Assembly (NCBI GenBank): GCA_035297425.1
Contig: DATGYZ010000004.1
Location: 27,158 to 91,157, forward strand
Source of the DNA: Bacteroidales bacterium
GTDB taxonomy: Bacteria > Bacteroidota > Bacteroidia > Bacteroidales > VadinHA17
Direction of reading: 5' to 3'
Length of the DNA: 64,000 nt
Made by a program: the position numbers and the translations under genes. The notes beneath the pieces are model-generated. The model did not search any database. It had not been told where the DNA came from and saw only the letters and a program-made list of their open reading frames with translations. Position 1 is the stretch's first letter. Every line of letters begins with the position of its first letter. Shown piece by piece: positions 4,911 to 53,224 of the stretch.

Positions 4911-4982
4911 GCGGGAGTAGCTCAGGGGTAGAGCATTTGCTTCCCAAGCAAAGGGTCGTGGGTTCGATTCCCATTTCCCGCT
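4911..4982 (+). tRNA. tRNA-Gly (anticodon CCC)
   Basis: Hand-folded cloverleaf: acceptor GCGGGAG/TTCCCGC, D arm GCTC-AGGGGTA-GAGC, anticodon stem TTTGC/GCAAA with loop TTCCCAA, T arm GTGGG-TTCGATT-CCCAT. Confidence 0.9.
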
Positions 4983-4991
4983 CAATGATAA

Positions 4992-7320: not shown

Positions 7321-7400
7321 TTATTTCATCCCTTCGTTATGCTGACGCAAACTCAGGCATTCATAAAAATAAACAAGCTGCTTGCGCAGCCTTTTATTTG

Positions 7401-7473
7401 AGCCTTCTGTGGGACTCGAACCCACGACCTGCTCATTACGAATGAGCTGCTCTACCAACTGAGCTAAGGAGGC
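7401..7473 (-). tRNA. tRNA-Thr (anticodon CGT)
   Basis: The reverse complement is GCCTCCTTAGCTCAGTTGGTAGAGCAGCTCATTCGTAATGAGCAGGTCGTGGGTTCGAGTCCCACAGAAGGCT. It has anticodon loop TTCGTAA and a canonical T loop. Confidence 0.9.
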
Positions 7474-7494: not shown

Positions 7495-8721
7495 TCATTC
7501 CAACTTCTCCAGCCTGTCTAGTAATGGAGGATGTGAATAGTGAAAAAATACGTATACCGGATGAGGCATCAGGTTAGATAGATTTTTGACCGACAGCTTT
7601 TTTAATGCTGCAGCAAGCCTGGCAGGTTTATAATTTTCAAAAACAAAATGATCAGCAGCAAACTCATTCTTTCTGGAAATGTAATTTGTAAGAAGTCCTA
7701 TAACGAGGGAGACAGGACTATACAGGATGCCAAAAACAATCAGCCCCAGGTGGAAGCTGGGAATTTCAGACCCAAGTGCTGATGCAAATAAAGGATTATC
7801 GACAACAAGCGAGAAAAGGAACAGCATTAATCCTGTAAGCAGCACTGAGAGTACCATCGATACAAATACATGCTTCTTCCTGTAATGACCAATCTCATGA
7901 GCCAGAACAGCGGTTATCTCCTCTTCAGAGAATTCCTTCATAAGGGTATCGTATAGGACAATTCTTTTTTTCGGTCCAAACCCTGAAAAATATGCATTTG
8001 CCTTTGTGCTTCTCTTTGATCCGTCTATTACATAAATATCTTTCAGGTTAAAGCCTGTTTTTGCTGCAAAATCCTGAATTGAATCTCTGAGAGTACCGGA
8101 ACTCAGTGGAATCTGTTTATTGAATAGAGGCACTATAAGCTCAGAGTAGAAGAAATTCATGAAGACAGAGAAAATTGTTACAACTCCCCACGCATACAGC
8201 CAGAAGTGAGGGCCTGTTTTATAGTAAAACCATGTTATCAGACCCAGCACAGGTGCTCCCACGAGCAATGCCAGAAACCATGACTTAATATGGTCAGTTA
8301 TAAATGTCCTGGTATTCATGGTGTTAAAACCGTATTTCCTTTCTATAACGAAAGTGTCATACCAGCTGAATGGTATGTTTATCAGGTCTGAAGCAAGACC
8401 GATAATTCCAAAGAAGATAAGTGAAACAATAATAATATTGCTGCTGACTGACCTTGCCACATTATCTGCATAAGAAAAACCGCCAAGCATTATCATCATT
8501 AAGATAATGATAAGATTAAATGTTGAAGACCAGAACTCAAGGCGGCTGTTATCTTTATAATAAAGCTGGCTCTTACGGTATTTTTCTTCATCGCAGATGC
8601 CGCTTAGCCGTAGTGGAAGCTTGTCAGACCACATACTGTTATTCAGGTGGTTAAGGTACCTTTCAGCTAAATAACCGGCAACAGGAATAAGAAGTATAAG
8701 ATAAAAGAAAGGATTGCCCAT
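7495..8721 (-). CDS. M48-family zinc metalloprotease (Ste24/CAAX-protease-like)
   Basis: 408 aa; multi-TM N-terminal half, then the HEIGHYRKKH zinc motif and a downstream EFAADHF. Confidence 0.85.
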   Translation of the reverse strand: MGNPFFYLILLIPVAGYLAERYLNHLNNSMWSDKLPLRLSGICDEEKYRKSQLYYKDNSRLEFWSSTFNLIIILMMIMLGGFSYADNVARSVSSNIIIVSLIFFGIIGLASDLINIPFSWYDTFVIERKYGFNTMNTRTFITDHIKSWFLALLVGAPVLGLITWFYYKTGPHFWLYAWGVVTIFSVFMNFFYSELIVPLFNKQIPLSSGTLRDSIQDFAAKTGFNLKDIYVIDGSKRSTKANAYFSGFGPKKRIVLYDTLMKEFSEEEITAVLAHEIGHYRKKHVFVSMVLSVLLTGLMLFLFSLVVDNPLFASALGSEIPSFHLGLIVFGILYSPVSLVIGLLTNYISRKNEFAADHFVFENYKPARLAAALKKLSVKNLSNLMPHPVYVFFHYSHPPLLDRLEKLE

Positions 8722-8727
8722 AGAACT

Positions 8728-8818
8728 AAAAAAAAAGAAGCAGGGTCCCTGTTTAAAATAAGTGTGGAATAAATATGTCTCGCTGCATTTCCTCGTGCTA
8801 AAAGGATAGGGACCCTGC
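8728..8818 (-). terminator. Large-loop hairpin plus U-tract downstream of fabG
   Basis: A perfect 11-bp inverted repeat, GCAGGGTCCCT (8740-8750) and AGGGACCCTGC (8808-8818), is separated by 57 nt. On the minus strand it is followed by TTCTTTTTTTTT. Confidence 0.5.
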
Positions 8819-8843
8819 GAATTCCAAATATAGTAAAATTTAT

Positions 8844-9590
8844 TTACGTTAGCATACCTCCGCAGACATGAATTGTCTGGCCGGATACATATGACGAAAG
8901 ATCAGATGCAAGATAAAGTGCTGTATTAGCCACATCTTCGGGTGTTCCTCCTCTTTTAAGGGGAATTTTTTCAGCCCATTCTTTTTTAACTTCCTCCGGA
9001 AGTTTCTCAGTCATTTCTGTGATAATAAAACCAGGGGCAATGGCATTGCACCTGATACCGCGTGAGCCAACCTCTTTCGCAACACTTTTTGTGAAGCCAA
9101 GAATACCTGCTTTTGATGCTGAGTAGTTGCTTTGGCCTGCATTGCCTGAAACACCCACAACAGAGCTCATATTGATTATTGACCCTGACCTCTGCTTGAG
9201 CATCTGGTTAAGAAGAGCCTTTGTGAGGTTGAATACAGATTTGAGGTTCACCGCGAGAACGGCATCCCACTGTTCTTCAGTCATACGCATCAGAAGAGTA
9301 TCTTTTGTAATTCCGGCATTATTGACAAGAATATCAACTCTTGAAAAATCTTTTACAACCTCATCTGCCAGTTTCTGTGCATCGGTGAAGCTTGCAGCAT
9401 TTGAGACATACCCCTTTGCTTTTACTCCAAGCCCGCTGATTTCACTAATAGTATCTTTAAACTCCTGGTCGTCAGCAATATTGGTTATTGCAATATCAGC
9501 CCCTTCACGGGCAAACCTCAGAGCAATGGCCTTACCTATGCCTCTTGAAGCTCCGGTAATAAGTGCCGTCTTTCCGCTTAATAGTCCCAT
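8844..9590 (-). CDS. fabG: 3-oxoacyl-[ACP] reductase FabG
   Basis: 248 aa classical SDR: TGASRGIGKAIA, NNAG, S...YSASKAG. Confidence 0.88.
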   Translation of the reverse strand: MGLLSGKTALITGASRGIGKAIALRFAREGADIAITNIADDQEFKDTISEISGLGVKAKGYVSNAASFTDAQKLADEVVKDFSRVDILVNNAGITKDTLLMRMTEEQWDAVLAVNLKSVFNLTKALLNQMLKQRSGSIINMSSVVGVSGNAGQSNYSASKAGILGFTKSVAKEVGSRGIRCNAIAPGFIITEMTEKLPEEVKKEWAEKIPLKRGGTPEDVANTALYLASDLSSYVSGQTIHVCGGMLT

Positions 9591-26677: not shown

Positions 26678-27316
26678 ATGTCAGAAAATAGATTATTACA
26701 GTCAGCATTAATACTGGCGATTATAACAGTAGGGTACAACCTGGCCGAAGGTATTGTATCTGTATTCTTTGGAATAAACGATGACACCCTGGCTCTTCTG
26801 GGATTTGGGATTGACAGTTTTGTAGAAGTTTTATCAGGAGCAGGAATAATACATATGATCTTCAGGATGAAGAAATCAGGACAGAACCTTACAAACAGGG
26901 ATCAATTCGAGAAACTGGCCTTAAAAATAACAGGGACATCTTTCTACATCCTTGCTGCAGGCCTGGTGGCTGGTGCGGTAATTAATATTATCAGGGGCAC
27001 AAAACCTCAAACTGCAATTGTGGGTATAATTGTATCTGCAGTTTCCATCCTTACAATGTATATTCTAATGAAAATGAAGCTTAAAATCGGCGGGCGGCTG
27101 AACTCAGATGCCATTATTGCCGATGCACACTGCACCAGGGCTTGTCTTTATCTTTCATTTGTCCTGCTTGCATCAAGCGGTATGTATGAGCTTTTAGGAG
27201 TATCGTGGTTTGACATAGCAGGATCATTGGGAATAGCCTGGTTTGCATTTTCTGAAGGGAAAGAGGCATTTGAAAAAGCTTACAGCGAAAAAATTGACTG
27301 TGGGTGTCATGAATAA
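26678..27316 (+). CDS. Cation-efflux-like membrane protein (CDF transmembrane domain only)
   Basis: About 5-6 TM helices; YNLAEGIVSVFFGINDDTLALLGFGIDSFVEV resembles CDF TM1-2; C-terminal DCGCHE. The ATG at 26678 is preferred over the TTG at 26639. Confidence 0.5.
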   Translation: MSENRLLQSALILAIITVGYNLAEGIVSVFFGINDDTLALLGFGIDSFVEVLSGAGIIHMIFRMKKSGQNLTNRDQFEKLALKITGTSFYILAAGLVAGAVINIIRGTKPQTAIVGIIVSAVSILTMYILMKMKLKIGGRLNSDAIIADAHCTRACLYLSFVLLASSGMYELLGVSWFDIAGSLGIAWFAFSEGKEAFEKAYSEKIDCGCHE

Positions 27317-43205: not shown

Positions 43206-43213
43206 GAACTTTG
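43206..43213 (+). promoter_or_regulatory. -7-like box GAACTTTG upstream of DUF892 paralogue 1
   Basis: ATTTTGAACTTTGCA lies 48 nt upstream of the ATG at 43262. Confidence 0.45.
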
Positions 43214-43261
43214 CAAAACAAAAATTTTCAATTTCTCATTGTTAAATTAATACAGGACATT

Positions 43262-43777
43262 ATGAAAAACAGGTCTCAAAATGAATCTGGCCTTCGTGAA
43301 TTATTGGAGGACCAGTTGAAAGATGCGTACTGGGCTGAAAAAGCAATTGCAAGAGCAATGCCTGATGTGGTTGAAAAGGCAAGTTCCCAGGAGCTTATAG
43401 ATGCACTTAATGAGCACATGGACATAACAAATCAACAAATTTCCAGGCTTGAGAATGTCTTTGAGATACTGGAGCTAAAAGCTGAAGCCGAAAAATGCGA
43501 GGCAATGGAAGGCATTCTGACCGAAGCTGATGACATAATTGGTGAACTTGATGAAGGCCCGGTCCGTGATGCTGGTATTATTGCGGCTGTTCAAAAAGTT
43601 GAGCATTATGAAATAGCTACATACGGAACGTTGAAATCATTCGCTAATCTGCTGGGTGAATATGAAGCTGCTTCACTGCTTGAAGAGACACTTGAAGAAG
43701 AGAAGGAGGCAGATCAGTTGCTCAGCGACATTGCAGAATCGGTTGTTAACATTGAAGCAGCAAATGAAGAAATGTAG
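43262..43777 (+). CDS. DUF892 (YciE/YciF-type) ferritin-like stress protein, paralogue 1
   Basis: LEDQLKDAYWAEKAIARAMP...EHMDITNQQISRLENVFE...VQKVEHYEIATYGTL...EETLEEEKEADQLL. By eye it is roughly 55-60% identical to the 52067 paralogue. Confidence 0.8.
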   Translation: MKNRSQNESGLRELLEDQLKDAYWAEKAIARAMPDVVEKASSQELIDALNEHMDITNQQISRLENVFEILELKAEAEKCEAMEGILTEADDIIGELDEGPVRDAGIIAAVQKVEHYEIATYGTLKSFANLLGEYEAASLLEETLEEEKEADQLLSDIAESVVNIEAANEEM

Positions 43778-43817
43778 ATTGTTATAAACAGTAAAATAAA
43801 TAAAAAATAAGAAAATT

Positions 43818-44075
43818 ATGAGAACAAGTGGTATAGTGATCAGCCTCATTGCAGGCGTAATTGCAGGAGCTGCTGCAGGTGCCATTCTTGGCGTACTGTA
43901 TGCACCCGACAGGGGAGTTGAGACACGCAGAAAAATCTCCCATAAGGGAGAAGAACTCAGAGATAATCTGAAACAGAAATTTGAGAGTGTAAAGGAAGAT
44001 ACACGAGATCTAATTGATAAGGGAAAATCAAAAATATATGAGGCTAAGAATGATGTGAATACATCATCAATCTGA
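43818..44075 (+). CDS. YtxH-domain protein, paralogue 1
   Basis: IAGVIAGAAAGAILGVLYAPDRGVETRRKI matches the YtxH signature. Confidence 0.75.
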   Translation: MRTSGIVISLIAGVIAGAAAGAILGVLYAPDRGVETRRKISHKGEELRDNLKQKFESVKEDTRDLIDKGKSKIYEAKNDVNTSSI

Positions 44076-44101
44076 TTTCATTGTCCGAATATTATATTTA
44101 T

Positions 44102-44138
44102 TGAATCCTGTTCTGTGAAGGACAGGATTCATTCTCTC
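44102..44138 (+). terminator. Hairpin after ytxH-like gene (weak U-tract)
   Basis: TGAATCCTGT / ACAGGATTCA forms a 10-bp stem, followed by TTCTCTCC. Confidence 0.4.
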
Positions 44139-44167
44139 CAACATATTATTTACATAACTCAAAAGCC

Positions 44168-45172
44168 ATGTTTTATCACGTAAAGGATTTACAATTCAAT
44201 GCACGTGTTTCACAGCCAGATGTGAAATTTGCAAGACTACTTCTTGAACAGTTCGGCGGAGGAAACGGGGAATTAAAAGCAGCAATACAGTATTTCATGC
44301 AGGCATTCAGCTGCCGCAAACCATATCCAGACAAATATGACCTCCTGATGGACATAGCCACTGAAGAATTCAGTCACCTCGAGATTGTAGGTGCTACCAT
44401 ACAAATGCTTCTTACCGGTATTAGCGGTGAATTGAAAAATGCTGCAGACGAATCTGATCTTACAAAACTTCTTGATGGCTCTGCTGCGAAAGAAGAATAT
44501 ATGCAGCAGGCTCTTATAAATCCTCATTTTTTTGTTCTGACCGGCGGAAGTCCGAGCTTAACTGATAGCCAGGGAATTCCCTGGAATGCAGGTTATATAA
44601 ATGCCAATGGTGACCTTACAGTTGATCTCCGTTCGAATATTGCTGCAGAATCACGGGCAAAAATAGTGTATGAATATCTCATGAAATTCACCCCGGACCC
44701 ACTTGTCAAGGAAACTCTTCGTTTCCTGATGACCCGTGAGGTTGCTCACTTCCAGATGTTTGAGGCTGCTTTGAACAGTATGCCTGCCAACTTCCCTCCG
44801 GGAGTACTTCAGAGCGACCCGCGTTTCAGCAACTCCTATTTCAATATGTCAAATGATGAAGACATCAGAGGTCCCTGGAATGAAGGACAGAGTCCTGAAT
44901 TCATGGAGGAATGGAGATATATTGAAGATCCGATTGAACATGTTCGTGAAACAATGGGACTTATCGATGAAATGCCCCATGGAACAAGCAGAACTGAAAA
45001 ATCGGTACAAAAAAACAACAGGATGATCGGAGAAGAGAGGAAAGTCATTATCGATGATTCAAACGTCCCTGTTGACGGTATATTAATGTGGTCGACCTAT
45101 GGTGAAGAGATGGCTGGTATAACAAAGGGCAAATCTCCATCACGTACAAAGAAGAAAAGCAACAATAAATGA
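44168..45172 (+). CDS. Manganese-catalase-family protein (YdbD-like)
   Basis: LLEQFGGGNGELKAAIQYFMQAF...ATEEFSHLEIVGATI...TREVAHFQMF (di-Mn ligand motifs). Confidence 0.85.
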   Translation: MFYHVKDLQFNARVSQPDVKFARLLLEQFGGGNGELKAAIQYFMQAFSCRKPYPDKYDLLMDIATEEFSHLEIVGATIQMLLTGISGELKNAADESDLTKLLDGSAAKEEYMQQALINPHFFVLTGGSPSLTDSQGIPWNAGYINANGDLTVDLRSNIAAESRAKIVYEYLMKFTPDPLVKETLRFLMTREVAHFQMFEAALNSMPANFPPGVLQSDPRFSNSYFNMSNDEDIRGPWNEGQSPEFMEEWRYIEDPIEHVRETMGLIDEMPHGTSRTEKSVQKNNRMIGEERKVIIDDSNVPVDGILMWSTYGEEMAGITKGKSPSRTKKKSNNK

Positions 45173-45190
45173 AGATGAAACCGGGGGGCA

Positions 45191-46105
45191 ATGAAGAAAT
45201 TGAAGTTGTTTACAATTTTAAAACAAACTTTTAAGGAATGGATGGCCAAGGATCCGTTTCGTGAAAGCGCGGTAATTGCTTACTATGCAATTTTTTCTCT
45301 CCCGGGTTTATTCGTGCTTATAATAACTCTTGCAGGGTACTTTTTTGGACGTGATGCAGTTAATGAACATGTCCTCAACCAGGTATCTTCAGCACTTGGA
45401 AATGATTCGGCAGATCAGATTTATGAAATAATTCAACAGCAGGAGAGTGAAACTCAAAAAACCTCGGTGTGGGGTGCTATAGTAGGTATTGCCACCTTGC
45501 TCCTGGGTGCAACAGGGGTATTCGCGCAGTTTCAGAAATCTCTCAACAATATATGGGAAGTTAAACCTGATAAAGCGAAGTCAGGCATTGTGGAGCTTAT
45601 TAAGGTTCGACTTTTTTCTTTTGGCCTTATCGTATCAATTGCCTTCCTGCTAATTATCTCTTTGCTCATATCAACATTGCTCACAGCTTTTGGCGAATGG
45701 CTTTCGAGCAAATTTTCGGAATCTTTGCTGATCCTGCTTAAGATTTTGAATTTCATTATTTCTTTCAGCATACTTACATTGCTTTTTGCAATGATGCTCA
45801 AGATATTCCCTGATGCAAAGATCAAATGGAAAGATGTCTGGATCGGGTCTGCGTTAACAACAATACTTTTTATAATTGGGAAGTATGGATTAAGTCTTTA
45901 TTTCGGAAAGGCAAATCCTGCATCAGCTTTTGGAGCTGCAGGATCTATTATTCTTATCCTTCTGTGGGTGTCTTACTCATCTATGATAGTATTCTTTGGC
46001 GCTGAATTTACCCGGCAATATGCCAATATACATTCAGGAGGAGCTGCTCCTTCCGACCATGCGGTAAAAGATGAGCGCTGCAAGGATAAGAAAGAAGAAA
46101 TGTAG
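45191..46105 (+). CDS. YihY/BrkB-family membrane protein
   Basis: ESAVIAYYAIFSLPGL, six TM helices, LLWVSYSSMIVFFGAEFT. Confidence 0.8.
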   Translation: MKKLKLFTILKQTFKEWMAKDPFRESAVIAYYAIFSLPGLFVLIITLAGYFFGRDAVNEHVLNQVSSALGNDSADQIYEIIQQQESETQKTSVWGAIVGIATLLLGATGVFAQFQKSLNNIWEVKPDKAKSGIVELIKVRLFSFGLIVSIAFLLIISLLISTLLTAFGEWLSSKFSESLLILLKILNFIISFSILTLLFAMMLKIFPDAKIKWKDVWIGSALTTILFIIGKYGLSLYFGKANPASAFGAAGSIILILLWVSYSSMIVFFGAEFTRQYANIHSGGAAPSDHAVKDERCKDKKEEM

Positions 46106-48366: not shown

Positions 48367-48811
48367 CTCTGTTCTTTTTATGTTAATATTTGACAGGTTG
48401 TTCTCCCGGGATTGGATGTGTTCCATGATAACAGCTTACCGGAATGGCATAAATTATCCGGCAGAGATAATTCGGAATAAAGACTTGAATAAACTATATC
48501 GTAACAGACAAGAAATATCATTGTGGTGAACTCTGGTTGGTCTGTGCTCCTCAAGGAATCATGCGACAAATACCCGACAGATGCATTATGTAAAAGTAGA
48601 ATTTGGCAGCCTGCAGGCAGTTACATTATTATTCAATTTTCTTATATGATTCACATATTAACCAGAAGTAAAAACCAAAAGTGAGCCGATGTATTAACCT
48701 GATATTCAACGTTTTACATTAAATATTCATCTTATTGTATATCAAGGAGATAGCTGTTATATTTTGCAATATTTAAATGAAATTTTATAACTAGAAAAAT
48801 TGGTTGTTCAC

Positions 48812-48819
48812 GAACTTTG
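48812..48819 (+). promoter_or_regulatory. -7-like box GAACTTTG upstream of 49-aa basic ORF
   Basis: TTCACGAACTTTGTAA lies 38 nt upstream of the ATG at 48858. Confidence 0.4.
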
Positions 48820-48857: not shown

Positions 48858-49007
48858 ATGGATAAATCGAAAAACAAAAATACGAAGGAGCATAAGAGCG
48901 ATGCAAAAGCCACGAGACTGAAAAGAATCCGTGAAGGCAACAAAAAAACCTCAAATTTAAGGGAGAAGAACAGCGATACTCTCTTCGGTGAACGTCAAGT
49001 AAAGTAA
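48858..49007 (+). CDS. 49-aa highly basic mini-protein (hypothetical)
   Basis: Hand-translated as MDKSKNKNTKEHKSDAKATRLKRIREGNKKTSNLREKNSDTLFGERQVK. It has a promoter box upstream and a hairpin GGCAGCT..AGCTGCC downstream. Confidence 0.3.
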   Translation: MDKSKNKNTKEHKSDAKATRLKRIREGNKKTSNLREKNSDTLFGERQVK

Positions 49008-49186
49008 ATGTTTAAATAAAGAAGGACTGTAACATATATCAAACCCATATAATCTCCCTGCCAGGCAGGTATAATAAGACGGCAGCTCCGGAAACGAAGC
49101 TGCCTGTTCTATAATGTAACATTTGAAAAAGATTTTGTAACAGTTGTCTTCCCTACTAAAACCATCTTTGTTTAAAATCATGCGAC

Positions 49187-50056
49187 ATGCAAAAATCAAA
49201 TCCCAAGAAAGAAATATTCAAAAAACAGACACAGGATCTTCCTGGTCTTGAGAAGAAAATGGATCCCAGACCAGAATTTGATAACGAACTTGAAGGAAAG
49301 AACAGGCTTAACGGCAAGAAATGTATCATAACAGGTGGTGACAGTGGAATTGGCAGGGCTGTTGCGATAGCATTTGCCAAAGAAGGAGCAGATGTTGCAA
49401 TCATACATCTCCCGGCAGAAAAAGAAGATTCTGAATTCACTGTAAAATACATAAGTGAGAAGTATAACAGGAAATGTATTTCTGTAGCAACAGATATTTC
49501 ATCAGAAGCCAATTGCAGGAAAGCTGTGGAAGATATTGTGGCTGTATTCGGCAGAGTGGATGTGCTTGTAAATAATGCAGCTGTGCAATACCCGATGGAT
49601 GATTTTCTCAAAATAACAACTCAGAACCTCGTTGAAACATTTTCTGTTAACATTTTTGCAATGTTCTGGCTTACCCAGGGTGTTATACCTTATATGACAA
49701 AAGGTTCTGTAATAATAAATACAACGTCGGTAACTGCCTACAGGGGTTCCTCAAGCCTTGTTGATTACAGCTCAACCAAGGGAGCCATAGTATCTTTTAC
49801 AAGAAGCCTTTCGGCAAACCTTGTTGATAAAGGAATCAGAGTAAATGCTGTCGCACCAGGACCTGTCTGGACACCATTGATACCGGCTACATTTGATGAA
49901 GAGCATGTGCAAAAGTTTGGTACCGATGTTCCAATGAAGAGACCCGGACAGCCGGTTGAAGTAGCACCAGCTTATGTTTTTCTTGCAGGCCGGGACTCTG
50001 ATTATATAACTGGACAGGTAATCCATGTAAATGGAGGGGAGATAATAAACGGATAA
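49187..50056 (+). CDS. SDR-family oxidoreductase (YhxC / general stress protein 39-like)
   Basis: ITGGDSGIGRAVAIAFAKEGADVAI, NNAA, S...YSSTKGA, C-terminal ITGQVIHVNGG. Confidence 0.82.
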   Translation: MQKSNPKKEIFKKQTQDLPGLEKKMDPRPEFDNELEGKNRLNGKKCIITGGDSGIGRAVAIAFAKEGADVAIIHLPAEKEDSEFTVKYISEKYNRKCISVATDISSEANCRKAVEDIVAVFGRVDVLVNNAAVQYPMDDFLKITTQNLVETFSVNIFAMFWLTQGVIPYMTKGSVIINTTSVTAYRGSSSLVDYSSTKGAIVSFTRSLSANLVDKGIRVNAVAPGPVWTPLIPATFDEEHVQKFGTDVPMKRPGQPVEVAPAYVFLAGRDSDYITGQVIHVNGGEIING

Positions 50057-50071
50057 AAGTACCGCTGCAGG

Positions 50072-51187
50072 ATGATCATAACCACTGAAAAGCTCAGGAT
50101 AAGAAAAAAAAAGCTCAACGTCATAACGAATGACGCTGGGAAGACAGCAAGGGCAGCTGGACTTGTATATGTTACAACTTCAGAACCTGGATTTACAAGA
50201 GTGAGGACCGAATCCGGATTCTATTACAAAGACGGGGACAAAAGGTTACGTGACAGGGATCATCTGGAACGGATAAGAAGACTTGTACTTCCTCCTGCCT
50301 GGGAAGATGTTTGGATATGCAAATTGCACAATGGTCATCTTCAGGCAACAGGTATTGATAAACGAAACAGGAAACAATACAGGTATCATGAATCATGGAT
50401 GGCTATCAGGAATCAGACCAAATTTTACAGGCTTCGGGAATTCGGTCTGAAAATTCCTGAAATCAGAAAGAAAATTGAAAAAGATCTTGCCCTGCCGGGC
50501 TTTCCGCAGAATAAAGTTCTTGCAGCTATGGTCAGCCTTCTTGAAAGGATAAACATAAGGGTTGGAAATGCTTTCTACGAAAAGTTATATGGTTCATTCG
50601 GCCTTACAACACTTAAAGATCATCATGTAAAGATTAATGGCGCGACGCTTAAACTGATGTTCAAGGGGAAGAAAGGAGTAATGCATGATATAAGCTTTTC
50701 CAACAGGAGGCTTGCAAAAATAATACAGGCCAGCAAAGATATTCCCGGCAAAGAGCTTTTTCAGTATTATGATGATGAAGGTGTTCGACGGGTGGTTGAC
50801 TCAGGTATGGTCAACAACTATATTAAGGAGATTTCAGGAAGCGATTTTACCGCAAAAGATTTCAGAACCTGGGCAGGAACAATTCAAGCCCTGCTTGCAT
50901 TCAGGGAGGTAGGAATGTTTTCGAGTATTACTGAGATGAACAAAAAAATACCTGCTGCTCTTGACATTGTTGCTAAAAAACTGGGCAATACAAGGGCAGT
51001 TTGCAAAAAATACTATGTGCATCCGATAATCATTGATCTCTATCAAAAAGGCAAACTGAAAAAGTATATAGAAAACCTGGATAAAGTTGAAACAGGGAGA
51101 GATGATGATGGGTATGTTGCGGAAGAAAGGCTGTTAATGACAATTCTCGATAACTCTCTTGTTCAGTTAAAAACAAATCAGATGTAA
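50072..51187 (+). CDS. DNA topoisomerase IB (poxvirus/eukaryote-type, bacterial TopIB)
   Basis: RIRRLVLPPAWEDVWICKLHNGHLQATGIDKRNRKQYRYH, FTAKDFRTW, NTRAVCKKYYVHP (active-site Tyr region). Confidence 0.85.
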   Translation: MIITTEKLRIRKKKLNVITNDAGKTARAAGLVYVTTSEPGFTRVRTESGFYYKDGDKRLRDRDHLERIRRLVLPPAWEDVWICKLHNGHLQATGIDKRNRKQYRYHESWMAIRNQTKFYRLREFGLKIPEIRKKIEKDLALPGFPQNKVLAAMVSLLERINIRVGNAFYEKLYGSFGLTTLKDHHVKINGATLKLMFKGKKGVMHDISFSNRRLAKIIQASKDIPGKELFQYYDDEGVRRVVDSGMVNNYIKEISGSDFTAKDFRTWAGTIQALLAFREVGMFSSITEMNKKIPAALDIVAKKLGNTRAVCKKYYVHPIIIDLYQKGKLKKYIENLDKVETGRDDDGYVAEERLLMTILDNSLVQLKTNQM

Positions 51188-51188
51188 G

Positions 51189-51959
51189 ATGAGATCAATA
51201 TGGAAAGGTTCAGTCAGTTTCGGACTGGTAAATATTCCTGTTAAACTTTACAGTGCTACTCAGCAAAGCAGCCTGAACCTTGATATGGTCGACAGGCGTG
51301 ATATGGGAAAAGTCCGGTTCAAAAGAATAAATGAATTAACCGGGAAGGAGATCACAATGGAAAATATAGGCAAGGCATACCGCTATAACAATGATTATAT
51401 ATTGCTAGACGATGAAGATTTTGAAGCCGCCGCCCCGGAGAAAAGTAAAATAATTGAAGTGAACAATTTTGTAAGGGAAGAGGAAATAGATACCATATAT
51501 TTTGAGAATTCATATTATGTGGAGCCCGAAAAGGCTGGTGAAAAAGCATACGCACTCTTAAGAGAGGCAATGATAAAAACGGGAAAGGTAGGTGTTGCCC
51601 AGTTTGTTCTGCGGACATCTGCCACTCTCTCAGTTCTGAAGCCGATGAAGGATATTCTGGTACTGAGCAAAATCAGGTTTGCCGAGGAAATTAGAAGTAC
51701 GGAGGAAGTGAAAGTTCCGTCAAAGAATGTCATAAAACCAGATGAACTGAAAATGGCAGTTGCACTCGTAAACCAATATACTGAACCATTTGATATAGAA
51801 AAGTTTAAAGATGAATATTCTGCAGCATTAATGAAAGTTATTGAAGAAAGAGCATCTGGTAAAAAAGGTAAGGTCAGGAGACTTAAAATCACGCAGACCA
51901 CAAATGACAACCTGATGGATCAGCTTAAAGCCAGCCTGGCTAAATCGAAAGCCTCATAA
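51189..51959 (+). CDS. ku: Ku protein (non-homologous end-joining DNA-end-binding protein)
   Basis: MRSIWKGSVSFGLVNIPVKLYSAT is the canonical bacterial Ku N-terminus. It has a basic C-terminal tail. The ATG lies 1 nt after the topIB stop. Confidence 0.9.
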   Translation: MRSIWKGSVSFGLVNIPVKLYSATQQSSLNLDMVDRRDMGKVRFKRINELTGKEITMENIGKAYRYNNDYILLDDEDFEAAAPEKSKIIEVNNFVREEEIDTIYFENSYYVEPEKAGEKAYALLREAMIKTGKVGVAQFVLRTSATLSVLKPMKDILVLSKIRFAEEIRSTEEVKVPSKNVIKPDELKMAVALVNQYTEPFDIEKFKDEYSAALMKVIEERASGKKGKVRRLKITQTTNDNLMDQLKASLAKSKAS

Positions 51960-52014
51960 GTCTTAATCTGTAATCTATTTGAAAGATAGTGTAACAGGAT
52001 TCATTACAGTATAT

Positions 52015-52022
52015 TGAACTTT
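52015..52022 (+). promoter_or_regulatory. -7-like box GAACTTTG upstream of DUF892 paralogue 2
   Basis: TATTGAACTTTGCA lies 44 nt upstream of the ATG at 52067. Confidence 0.45.
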
Positions 52023-52066
52023 GCATTATTAAGAATCCAGAGTAAGAACCTATAAAATATACTATT

Positions 52067-52720
52067 ATGAGCCCCAAAAGTAAATCAGCCAAATCAAAAA
52101 ATAGCGAAAAAAATACAATTCACGAACTTTTCGAACATCAGCTTCAGGACATTCTATGGGCAGAACAGGAACTAACGAACTTCATGCCTGAGATCGTTGA
52201 ACAGATCTCTTCAAAAGAGCTTGTAAATACATTACAGGAACATATGAAAGTGACGGAGAAGCAAATTAGTAGACTTGACAACATTTTTGAACTGATAGGC
52301 GCTGAAAAGAAAGCTGAAAAGTGCGATGGTATGGAAGGCCTTATTAAAGAAGCAAGAAGCATTGTCGAAATGGCTGATGAAGGTGTGGTCCGCGATGCAT
52401 TCATTATTGGTGCAGTGCAGAAAATGGAACATTATGAAATGGCTGGATATGGCACCCTGAAGGCCATTGCAGCAATAATAGGTGAATATGAAGTTTCATC
52501 ACTCCTGGGAGAAACTCTTGAAGAAGAAAAAGAAGCTGACATGAAGCTTACTGAGGTTGCTGAAAGTGTTGTTAATATCAATGCTTCAATGGAATCGGGT
52601 GAACTTGAGGATGAAGAAGGTGAATCCGGAGAGGATGAGACCGAAGAAGAGACTTCAGCAATATCCAGGTCAGGATCAAAATCAAAATCTTCATCAAAGG
52701 CTAAATCAAAATCCAGGTAA
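52067..52720 (+). CDS. DUF892 (YciE-type) ferritin-like stress protein, paralogue 2, with acidic and Ser/Lys-rich tail
   Basis: FEHQLQDILWAEQELTNFMP...VQKMEHYEMAGYGTL...GETLEEEKEADMKL, then EDEEGESGEDETEEE and SKSKSSSKAKSKSR. Confidence 0.8.
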   Translation: MSPKSKSAKSKNSEKNTIHELFEHQLQDILWAEQELTNFMPEIVEQISSKELVNTLQEHMKVTEKQISRLDNIFELIGAEKKAEKCDGMEGLIKEARSIVEMADEGVVRDAFIIGAVQKMEHYEMAGYGTLKAIAAIIGEYEVSSLLGETLEEEKEADMKLTEVAESVVNINASMESGELEDEEGESGEDETEEETSAISRSGSKSKSSSKAKSKSR

Positions 52721-53168: not shown

Positions 53169-53189
53169 TTATAGACTAAACAATAAATA

Positions 53190-53224
53190 AAGGATTGGAG
53201 AAAATAGCTTCAATCCTTTTTTGC
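53190..53224. terminator. Bidirectional terminator between ytxH-like gene and fumC
   Basis: AAGGATTG ... CAATCCTT forms an 8-bp stem with TTTTTTG on the plus side and an A-rich run on the other side. Confidence 0.65.

Follow-up and report, generated by a model that had tools for sequence, protein, structure and literature searches.

We examined a 64,000-nucleotide stretch of a Bacteroidales genome of the VadinHA17 lineage (assembly GCA_035297425.1, contig DATGYZ010000004.1, forward strand positions 27,158 to 91,157), referred to below as the window, in which a gene for a type IB DNA topoisomerase (TopIB, HLN19532.1) lies between a gene for a short-chain dehydrogenase/reductase (SDR) and the gene for a bacterial Ku protein (HLN19533.1). 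The string appears to be a derivative, lacking the gene for the ligase LigD, of an SDR-topIB-ku-ligD operon of Bacteroidota. We consider it probable that the locus is a co-regulated operon for DNA maintenance under stress or in dormancy, in which TopIB is an optional companion of non-homologous end joining (NHEJ), not a replacement for LigD. Descriptions of NHEJ in bacteria usually give it two protein components. What is apparently unreported here is the operon variant with TopIB and the SDR prefixed to ku-ligD, together with its ligD-less derivative; both proteins are ordinary members of known families.

The genes that carry the argument are given below in window coordinates.

49187-50056, + strand: SDR oxidoreductase of PRK06701-like type; the operon's first long gene (profile matches, motifs in the translation)
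50072-51187, + strand: type IB DNA topoisomerase of the bacterial, poxvirus-like kind, predicted active (catalytic pentad aligned to 2f4q_A)
51189-51959, + strand: bacterial Ku (ortholog of LigD-adjacent Ku)
51960-52066, + strand: 107-bp intergenic region at the position held by ligD in relatives; holds a TGTAAC-N23-CTTTG motif

The SDR stop codon (TAA, 50054-50056) is separated by a 15-nt gap from the TopIB start (ATG, 50072), and the TopIB stop (TAA, 51185-51187) by a single base (G, 51188) from the Ku start (ATG, 51189); the Ku stop codon occupies 51957-51959, and all three genes are on the + strand. These spacings agree exactly with those in a preliminary description of the window, which had also proposed that the three genes share a transcript. 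They are indeed probably operonic, and a single SDR-topIB-ku transcript is plausible, since no intrinsic-terminator-like site occurs on the + strand within 49187-51959, the first convincing one lying after ytxH (53189-53219), and the same tight string recurs in relatives. An assembly artefact is ruled out, because an independent Logan assembly (L001) has a gene content identical to that of the window and because L165, which comes from a different sequencing run and sample, has the same LigD-less order.

The topoisomerase matches the catalytic core PF01028 (123.8 bits against a cutoff of 23.7, 9.2e-36) and the bacterial N-terminal domain PF21338 (74.7 bits against a cutoff of 27, 4.6e-21), and it aligns with the Deinococcus radiodurans TopIB structures 2f4q/3m4a over residues 52-338 (E = 1.4e-53). 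Residues R163, K200, R265, N306 and Y315, which align with R137, K174, R239, N280 and Y289 of 2f4q_A, form what we take to be the type IB catalytic pentad Arg-Lys-Arg-(His/Asn)-Tyr. Four of these positions are invariant and one is nearly so across 34 diverse TopIBs, and the pentad residues are retained in 162-164 of the 164 TopIB loci collected. With a complete pentad, the window protein is predicted to be catalytically competent. Type IB topoisomerases relax DNA without ATP or Mg2+, by way of a 3'-phosphotyrosyl intermediate.

When Ku-linked TopIBs were compared with other TopIBs, no discriminating alignment columns were found, and the N- and C-terminal tails were of equal length. Fusion of TopIB to Ku or LigD domains, which would have served as a "Rosetta stone", was discarded, as the ten longer TopIB representatives carry only glycosyltransferase, ArsR-type helix-turn-helix (HTH), ADH_zinc_N or unassigned extensions. 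The N-terminal extensions on P0174, P0181 and P0220, namely a GT4 glycosyltransferase (757 aa), an ArsR-type HTH (451 aa) and part of an ADH_zinc_N domain, could be genuine fusions or errors of gene calling.

Judged by its sequence, the Ku of the window is a bona fide bacterial Ku. It matches PF02735 from end to end (positions 1-190 of 190, 1.8e-49) and TIGR02772 along the whole model (1-259 of 259; 285.6 bits, cutoff 150), and its core aligns to the Bacillus subtilis and Mycobacterium tuberculosis Ku structures (E = 3.5e-48 and 2.5e-40). Identity to three Kus encoded directly 5' of LigD in relatives is 84%, 82% and 71%. The basic, Lys-rich C-terminal arm (residues 221-256), which in characterised systems binds DNA and recruits LigD (PMC9638933), is equally conserved in LigD-less and LigD-linked orthologs. 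The possibility, raised in the preliminary description, that this copy is a diverged duplicate fails on those identities, and a paralog is ruled out by 71-89% identity to syntenic orthologs and by the intact arm.

That no LigD is in view, as first noticed from the sequence, holds for the phosphoesterase (PE), ligase (Lig) and polymerase (Pol) domains alike across the 64 kb, out of a contig of 174,760 bp: two full LigDs of relatives, searched by tblastn against all six frames of the window, gave a best E of 0.7, and neither a LigD remnant nor a relocated LigD was found within it. The absence is no property of the TopIB-Ku pairing itself: the usual arrangement is topIB-ku-ligD, and the window belongs to a sub-lineage that has had ligD deleted from the place after ku. 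Three relatives whose TopIBs are 75% (L002), 72% (L166) and 65% (L004) identical to that of the window have the order SDR, TopIB, Ku, LigD, with LigD starting 2-3 nt after Ku. As in the window, the genes for the CHASE3-PAS kinase and the receiver stand divergently upstream of them, and downstream come DUF892 and YtxH. A further locus (L167) reads (Ku)-LigD-DUF892-YtxH. The closest relative, L165 (TopIB 81% identical), has SDR, TopIB, Ku and DUF892 in this order, without LigD. In the TopIB tree, the window and L165 nest among the LigD-bearing loci; this position, the order in L167 and the lack of any LigD remnant in the window make it parsimonious that an ancestral SDR-topIB-ku-ligD operon lost ligD from its 3' end by a clean deletion in the window/L165 sub-lineage.

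Both remaining genes have been kept by selection. Between the window and L165, the nonsynonymous divergence pN is 0.118 for TopIB and 0.057 for Ku, set here against a synonymous divergence pS of 0.74-0.83, which is saturated, so that the comparison is one of pN with pS and no dN/dS proper. The low pN relative to saturated pS, together with the conserved C-terminal arm of Ku, indicates that topIB and ku have been under strong purifying selection since the loss of ligD. As several other Bacteroidota loci (L015, L030, L031, L110) also have ku without an adjacent ligD, it is quite possible that a LigD is encoded elsewhere in this genome.

The LigDs of close relatives differ in make-up. Those of L002 (11925-13928) and L167 (652-2628) are Lig-Pol only, with 658-667 aa, and those of L004 (11938-14538) and L166 (9892-12363) are PE-Lig-Pol, with 823-866 aa; in a second clade, L014 (13348-15842) has PE as a gene of its own ahead of Lig-Pol. 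Under the label Candidatus Saccharibacteria, a 42-kb contig encodes a Bacteroidota-like TopIB, 63% identical to that of the window, and a LigD 63% identical to that of L002; a LigD labelled Chloroflexota is 76% identical to the L002 protein (proteins P0075/P0314 and P0284). Both contigs are probably mis-binned.

How widespread the linkage is was assessed in the five closest relatives, in 80 metagenome loci (TopIB 53-74% identical to that of the window) and in 80 loci of GTDB species representatives (44-59% identical), the latter two being arbitrary subsets of the matches, ranked by similarity to the window TopIB. The pairing is not limited to this genome, a restriction that the preliminary description had named as refuting its proposal. 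Ku directly follows TopIB in 5/5 closest relatives, with LigD after Ku in three of them, and it does so on the same strand in 16 of the 62 metagenome loci with enough downstream sequence, at gaps of 5-278 nt; LigD follows Ku in 11 of the 12 metagenome loci that extend far enough. Over close and metagenome relatives together the TopIB-Ku gaps span 1-278 nt, and in the clade of the window 1-23 nt. The metagenome TopIB-Ku loci fall in three Bacteroidota clades of the TopIB tree.

Other gene orders occur as well. One locus has an inverted order, with a 4-nt overlap between LigD (Lig-Pol) and the start of TopIB (L147, 1-2426), another reads TopIB, x, BrkB, Ku, PE, Lig-Pol (L014), and in a Chitinophagaceae clade Ku and/or LigD lie at most 10 kb from TopIB on either strand. 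A Gemmatimonadota metagenome-assembled genome (MAG) has TopIB, a gene X, LigD-Pol and LigD-Lig with overlapping stops and starts, apparently as one operon (L082, 605-4579), and no Ku in its 11 kb. Gene X (202 aa) was considered as a divergent LigD-PE and rejected, having no similarity to LigD-PE and no Pfam match. The same locus has a second TopIB at 7922-8986, and thus two TopIB genes within 8 kb. In L110 (195-2092), TopIB is split into two ORFs by a frameshift or sequencing error and stands directly 5' of an intact Ku, followed by DUF4142 and an AI-2E transporter, with no LigD.

Among the more distant TopIBs of the 80 GTDB loci, the tight TopIB-Ku arrangement was found in none. Looser proximity is seen, with Ku at most 10 kb from TopIB in 6/40 GTDB Bacteroidota loci vs 0/40 others, and Ku or LigD within that distance in 8 of all 80. 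Isolates with ku or ligD nearby include Flavitalea sp. BT771 (L024) and Paraflavisolibacter caeni (L021), while the linked state itself was seen in contigs of uncultured origin only. Since a single ku in a genome of about 5 Mb would be expected within +/-10 kb of a given gene in roughly 0.4% of cases, the enrichment is real, with the proviso that loci within a clade are not independent events. When four Bacteroidota ku-ligD loci were picked only by LigD similarity, none had a TopIB within 6 kb; two of them have a divergent Fpg/Nei glycosylase gene (L170, 4430-5164; L171, 4625-5161). A universal TopIB partner was rejected, as what lies immediately beside TopIB varies widely over 78 species: DUF6526, Fpg/Nei (in 4/78), SDRs, DUF2383, Pyrid_ox_like, aldo-keto reductases and other genes. 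By gene order, the TopIB-Ku link is facultative, and only some Bacteroidota clades show it.

The third member of the string, the SDR, matches adh_short_C2 (PF13561; 194 bits, 3.6e-57) and shows the cofactor motif TGGDSGIG (TGxxxGxG) and the catalytic motif YSSTK (YxxxK) in its translation. Its best NCBIfam match is PRK06701, at 393.7 bits slightly below the cutoff of 413, and subfamily membership is not established. All five close relatives and 18 of 65 metagenome loci have the SDR gene directly 5' of TopIB, and the pair occurs without Ku or LigD in ten metagenome loci (L102, L104, L115, L117, L124, L125, L132, L135, L149, L153) and one GTDB locus (L008). SDR-TopIB is thus a conserved pair by itself, to which ku-ligD looks like an add-on in some clades.

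The neighbouring features of the window are as follows.

43211-46105, + strand: upstream stress genes, namely DUF892 (43211-43777), Mn-catalase (44168-45172) and BrkB (45191-46105); same set in L003 and L166
46107-47906, - strand: CHASE3-PAS histidine kinase, conserved divergent neighbour; same place in L002, L003, L004, L165 and L166
47887-48426, - strand: receiver-only response regulator, whose gene shares 20 nt with that of the kinase; kept with the kinase in all close relatives
48786-48819, + strand: promoter-like motif TATAAC-N23-CTTTG 5' of the small ORF, with a presumed function
48858-49007, + strand: small Lys/Arg-rich ORF of 49 aa, heading the operon; conserved place in relatives
49081-49104, no strand assigned: GC-rich hairpin in the gap from the small ORF to the SDR gene (10 pairs, 7 of them G-C); terminator-like only on the - strand
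52067-52720, + strand: DUF892, ferritin-like stress protein family; same downstream place in L165, L167, L002 and L166
52938-53168, + strand: YtxH-like small protein (profile match)
53189-53219, + strand: terminator-like hairpin at the end of the + strand gene string (12 pairs, then a T-run)

The 49-aa ORF matched no Pfam family. It is 59%, 45% and 39% identical to ORFs in the same position in L165, L166 and L002, with the consensus ...KA.R.K..R.GNKKT..LRE.NS.TL.GER.VK., and in L004 a DUF6496 ORF occupies its place. The motif T(G/A)TAAC-N23-CTTT(G/A) occurs in the window at 48786-48819 (TATAAC, before the small ORF) and at 51990-52023 (TGTAAC, before DUF892), with a near-match, longer by one spacer base, at 49137-49171, 12 nt 5' of the SDR ATG. 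The TGTAAC form is also present before DUF892 in L165 (6226-6259) and before csbD and the DUF6496 ORF in L004 (8705-8738, 8831-8864). It may be a shared stress-regulon promoter of Bacteroidota.

The whole region from 39 to 53 kb is a stress island, with DUF4142, DUF748/AsmA, DUF892, Mn-catalase, BrkB, the kinase and receiver genes, the 49-aa ORF, SDR, TopIB, Ku, a second DUF892 and YtxH; the islands of relatives additionally carry CsbD and catalase. The kinase and receiver pair is a candidate regulator of the island, because all close relatives (L002, L003, L004, L165, L166) have it divergently 5' of the operon. A foreign origin of the island was ruled out by its uniform GC content. A scan of the window with Rfam and ARAGORN gave no structured RNA except two tRNAs far from the locus.

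4911-4983, + strand: tRNA-Gly(CCC) (Rfam/ARAGORN)
7400-7473, - strand: tRNA-Thr(CGT) (Rfam/ARAGORN)

In the reading we favour, the operon would comprise the small basic ORF, SDR, topIB and ku, and its genes would be co-transcribed from a stress-type promoter along with the neighbouring general-stress genes. TopIB would serve as a swivelase, supplying topoisomerase activity when cells are short of energy and not growing. Ku-dependent end joining would operate in this same physiological state, so that the two proteins would belong to one DNA-maintenance programme and would possibly act on the same lesions. TopIB would then be neither a core NHEJ component nor a ligase replacement, and sealing would fall to a LigD encoded elsewhere or to another ligase such as LigA. 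Co-regulation fits the data at least as well as physical cooperation does, because the link is facultative, the linked TopIBs are ordinary and the SDR, an unlikely repair partner, is equally tightly linked.

Several points weigh against this interpretation. At least one match to the promoter-like motif occurs in 18 of 100 shuffles, which makes for weak statistics in the window. No LigD with the naming of this MAG or with an HLN accession was among the best 120 LigD relatives, which is weak evidence of its absence. The loci are phylogenetically clustered, and locus counts therefore overstate the number of independent events. The order-conserved, tight coupling of topIB with ku/ligD in at least four architectures, one of them outside Bacteroidota, exceeds usual regulon membership and gives room to a direct mechanistic link. 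In D. radiodurans, moreover, the Ku-like end binder PprA binds TopoIB and stimulates its relaxation activity, and it co-purifies with the ATP-dependent ligase LigB (PMC3893189).

The last two points, with gaps as short as 1-23 nt in the clade of the window, the conserved TopIB-Ku-LigD order, a linkage that survives rearrangement (L147, L014) and its independent appearance in Gemmatimonadota (L082), are those that speak for a direct partnership, in which TopIB would be an accessory NHEJ enzyme, physically recruited to DNA ends or stimulated there by Ku, whether LigD takes part or not. TopIB might free torsional strain so that synapsed ends can align, or it might incise at ribonucleotides left by LigD-Pol, giving 2',3'-cyclic phosphates that LigD-PE might heal, so that junctions are cleared of RNA. 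Type IB enzymes reportedly do cleave at ribonucleotides with formation of 2',3'-cyclic phosphates. Since LigD-Pol also prefers ribonucleotides (rNTPs) and LigD-PE heals 3' ends (PMC7072297, PMC3082917), TopIB could start RNA removal from NHEJ junctions. Set against this partnership are the many TopIB genes, the majority, that lie far from ku/ligD, the many ku-ligD loci without TopIB, the lack of a PE domain in the LigDs of L002 and L167 although L002 has TopIB, and the SDR, which has no obvious NHEJ role. A partnership of this kind is possible, though we regard it as doubtful and less favoured than co-regulation, because SDR-TopIB occurs without Ku, the neighbours of TopIB are heterogeneous, 4/4 ku-ligD loci sampled by LigD lack TopIB, and the linked TopIBs have no specific extension, no discriminating residue and no fusions. 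Rather unlikely, too, is the more specific proposal that in some Bacteroidota TopIB is a dedicated accessory of Ku-dependent joining, either stimulated by Ku as DraTopoIB is by PprA or excising LigD-Pol ribonucleotides through 2',3'-cyclic-phosphate ends healed by LigD-PE, and that in ligD-less lineages Ku and TopIB serve a LigD-independent repair route.

Three further explanations carry much less weight. In LigD-less lineages Ku might hold the ends while the covalent TopIB-3'-phosphotyrosyl intermediate religates to a 5'-OH, so that TopIB replaces the ligase; the poxvirus enzyme is able to pass strands on to heterologous acceptors with a 5'-OH. For TopIB strand transfer, however, the acceptor must have a 5'-OH and a cleavage site must lie close to the end, and breaks typically bear 5'-phosphates. 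That strong purifying selection has kept ku and topIB since the departure of ligD from the locus, seen in two samples, would suit such a replacement, as would the Ku-dependent, LigD-independent joining described in Pseudomonas aeruginosa, for which the responsible enzyme is unidentified, LigA is favoured and TopIB was not considered (PMC13273297, 2026). LigD nonetheless stands beside TopIB in the ancestral and commonest arrangement, so that TopIB did not arise as a LigD substitute; the arm of Ku that recruits LigD in characterised systems (PMC9638933) is unchanged, which hints at a surviving LigD-type partner, and ku without adjacent ligD in L015, L030, L031 and L110 shows that LigD may be elsewhere. 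The suggestion in the preliminary description that Ku recruits a TopIB religation activity finds no evidence in the locus, nor does substitution for LigD, because the usual arrangement is topIB-ku-ligD and ligD has been deleted here. We hold ligase replacement to be very improbable.

A damage-and-repair relationship, in which TopIB becomes trapped on nicked or abasic DNA in stressed cells and the resulting protein-linked double-strand breaks are mended by co-expressed Ku and LigD, is improbable as well, if slightly more credible. Type IB enzymes, as known for eukaryotic Top1, form irreversible cleavage complexes beside nicks and lesions, the gene arrangement points to operonic co-expression, and Fpg/Nei base-excision genes recur beside TopIB (4/78 species) and Ku (2/4 loci); on the other side, NHEJ genes are not linked to TopIB in most of the sampled loci, the locus has no gene for a bacterial Tdp1-like activity beside it, and the idea is entirely inferential. 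Neutral hitch-hiking, by which topIB came to lie beside ku by chance in one Bacteroidota lineage and was inherited vertically with no functional meaning, would explain why the tight arrangement is seen only in a few related clades and in none of 78 more distant TopIB loci or the 4/4 loci sampled by LigD. It is the least credible of these explanations, given a synteny kept despite saturated synonymous sites, a linkage that runs through at least four gene orders, a second phylum included, and operon-like gaps.

The family of bacterial type IB topoisomerases was described in 2002, and to our knowledge its role in the cell has been unclear ever since. A recurrent TopIB-Ku-LigD operon in what appears to be a stress regulon is a testable clue to that role. 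If the genes are only co-regulated, as the favoured reading has it, TopIB would count among the means by which Bacteroidota maintain their DNA in dormancy and under stress. For the question of Ku-dependent, LigD-independent joining (PMC13273297), TopIB is a candidate to consider.

In full-text searches, no publication turned up that connects bacterial TopIB with Ku, LigD or NHEJ, in line with the preliminary description, which knew of no characterisation of the pairing, and a comparative survey of NHEJ nowhere mentions a topoisomerase (PMC7719229). The closest functional analogy to the Ku-LigD-TopIB module is the PprA-LigB-TopoIB "DNA processing complex" of Deinococcus, where a protein that binds DNA ends and stimulates ligase is likewise associated with an ATP-dependent ligase and a type IB topoisomerase. 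PprA is, however, unrelated to Ku, and the association in Deinococcus is biochemical and not operonic, whereas that in the window is known from genes alone. With DraTopIB (PDB 2F4Q, 3M4A), the founding bacterial poxvirus-like TopIB, the window protein shares all five active-site residues and the PF21338 domain, and it has about 25 extra N-terminal residues. Their gene contexts differ, as Deinococcus has neither Ku nor LigD (PMC6300522).

Ku works without LigD in P. aeruginosa, and the window Ku has likewise been kept without a neighbouring LigD; the P. aeruginosa result comes from engineered ligD deletions, while the loss in the window is seen at the locus only. In Sinorhizobium meliloti, ku3-ku4 and ligD4 are RpoE2-dependent and NHEJ genes belong to the general stress regulon (PMC6379672). 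The window ku similarly lies among stress genes (DUF892, YtxH and Mn-catalase, with CsbD-type genes in relatives) that share a promoter-like motif, although S. meliloti belongs to another phylum, uses other regulators and involves no TopIB. Compared with the canonical ku-ligD loci of M. tuberculosis, B. subtilis (ykoV-ykoU) and P. aeruginosa, the window likewise encodes a full-length TIGR02772 Ku with a Lys-rich C-terminal arm, and its close relatives are alike in having LigD, as PE-Lig-Pol or Lig-Pol, 2-3 nt after Ku. The window differs from those loci in that its ligD position is empty and TopIB and the SDR are added upstream.

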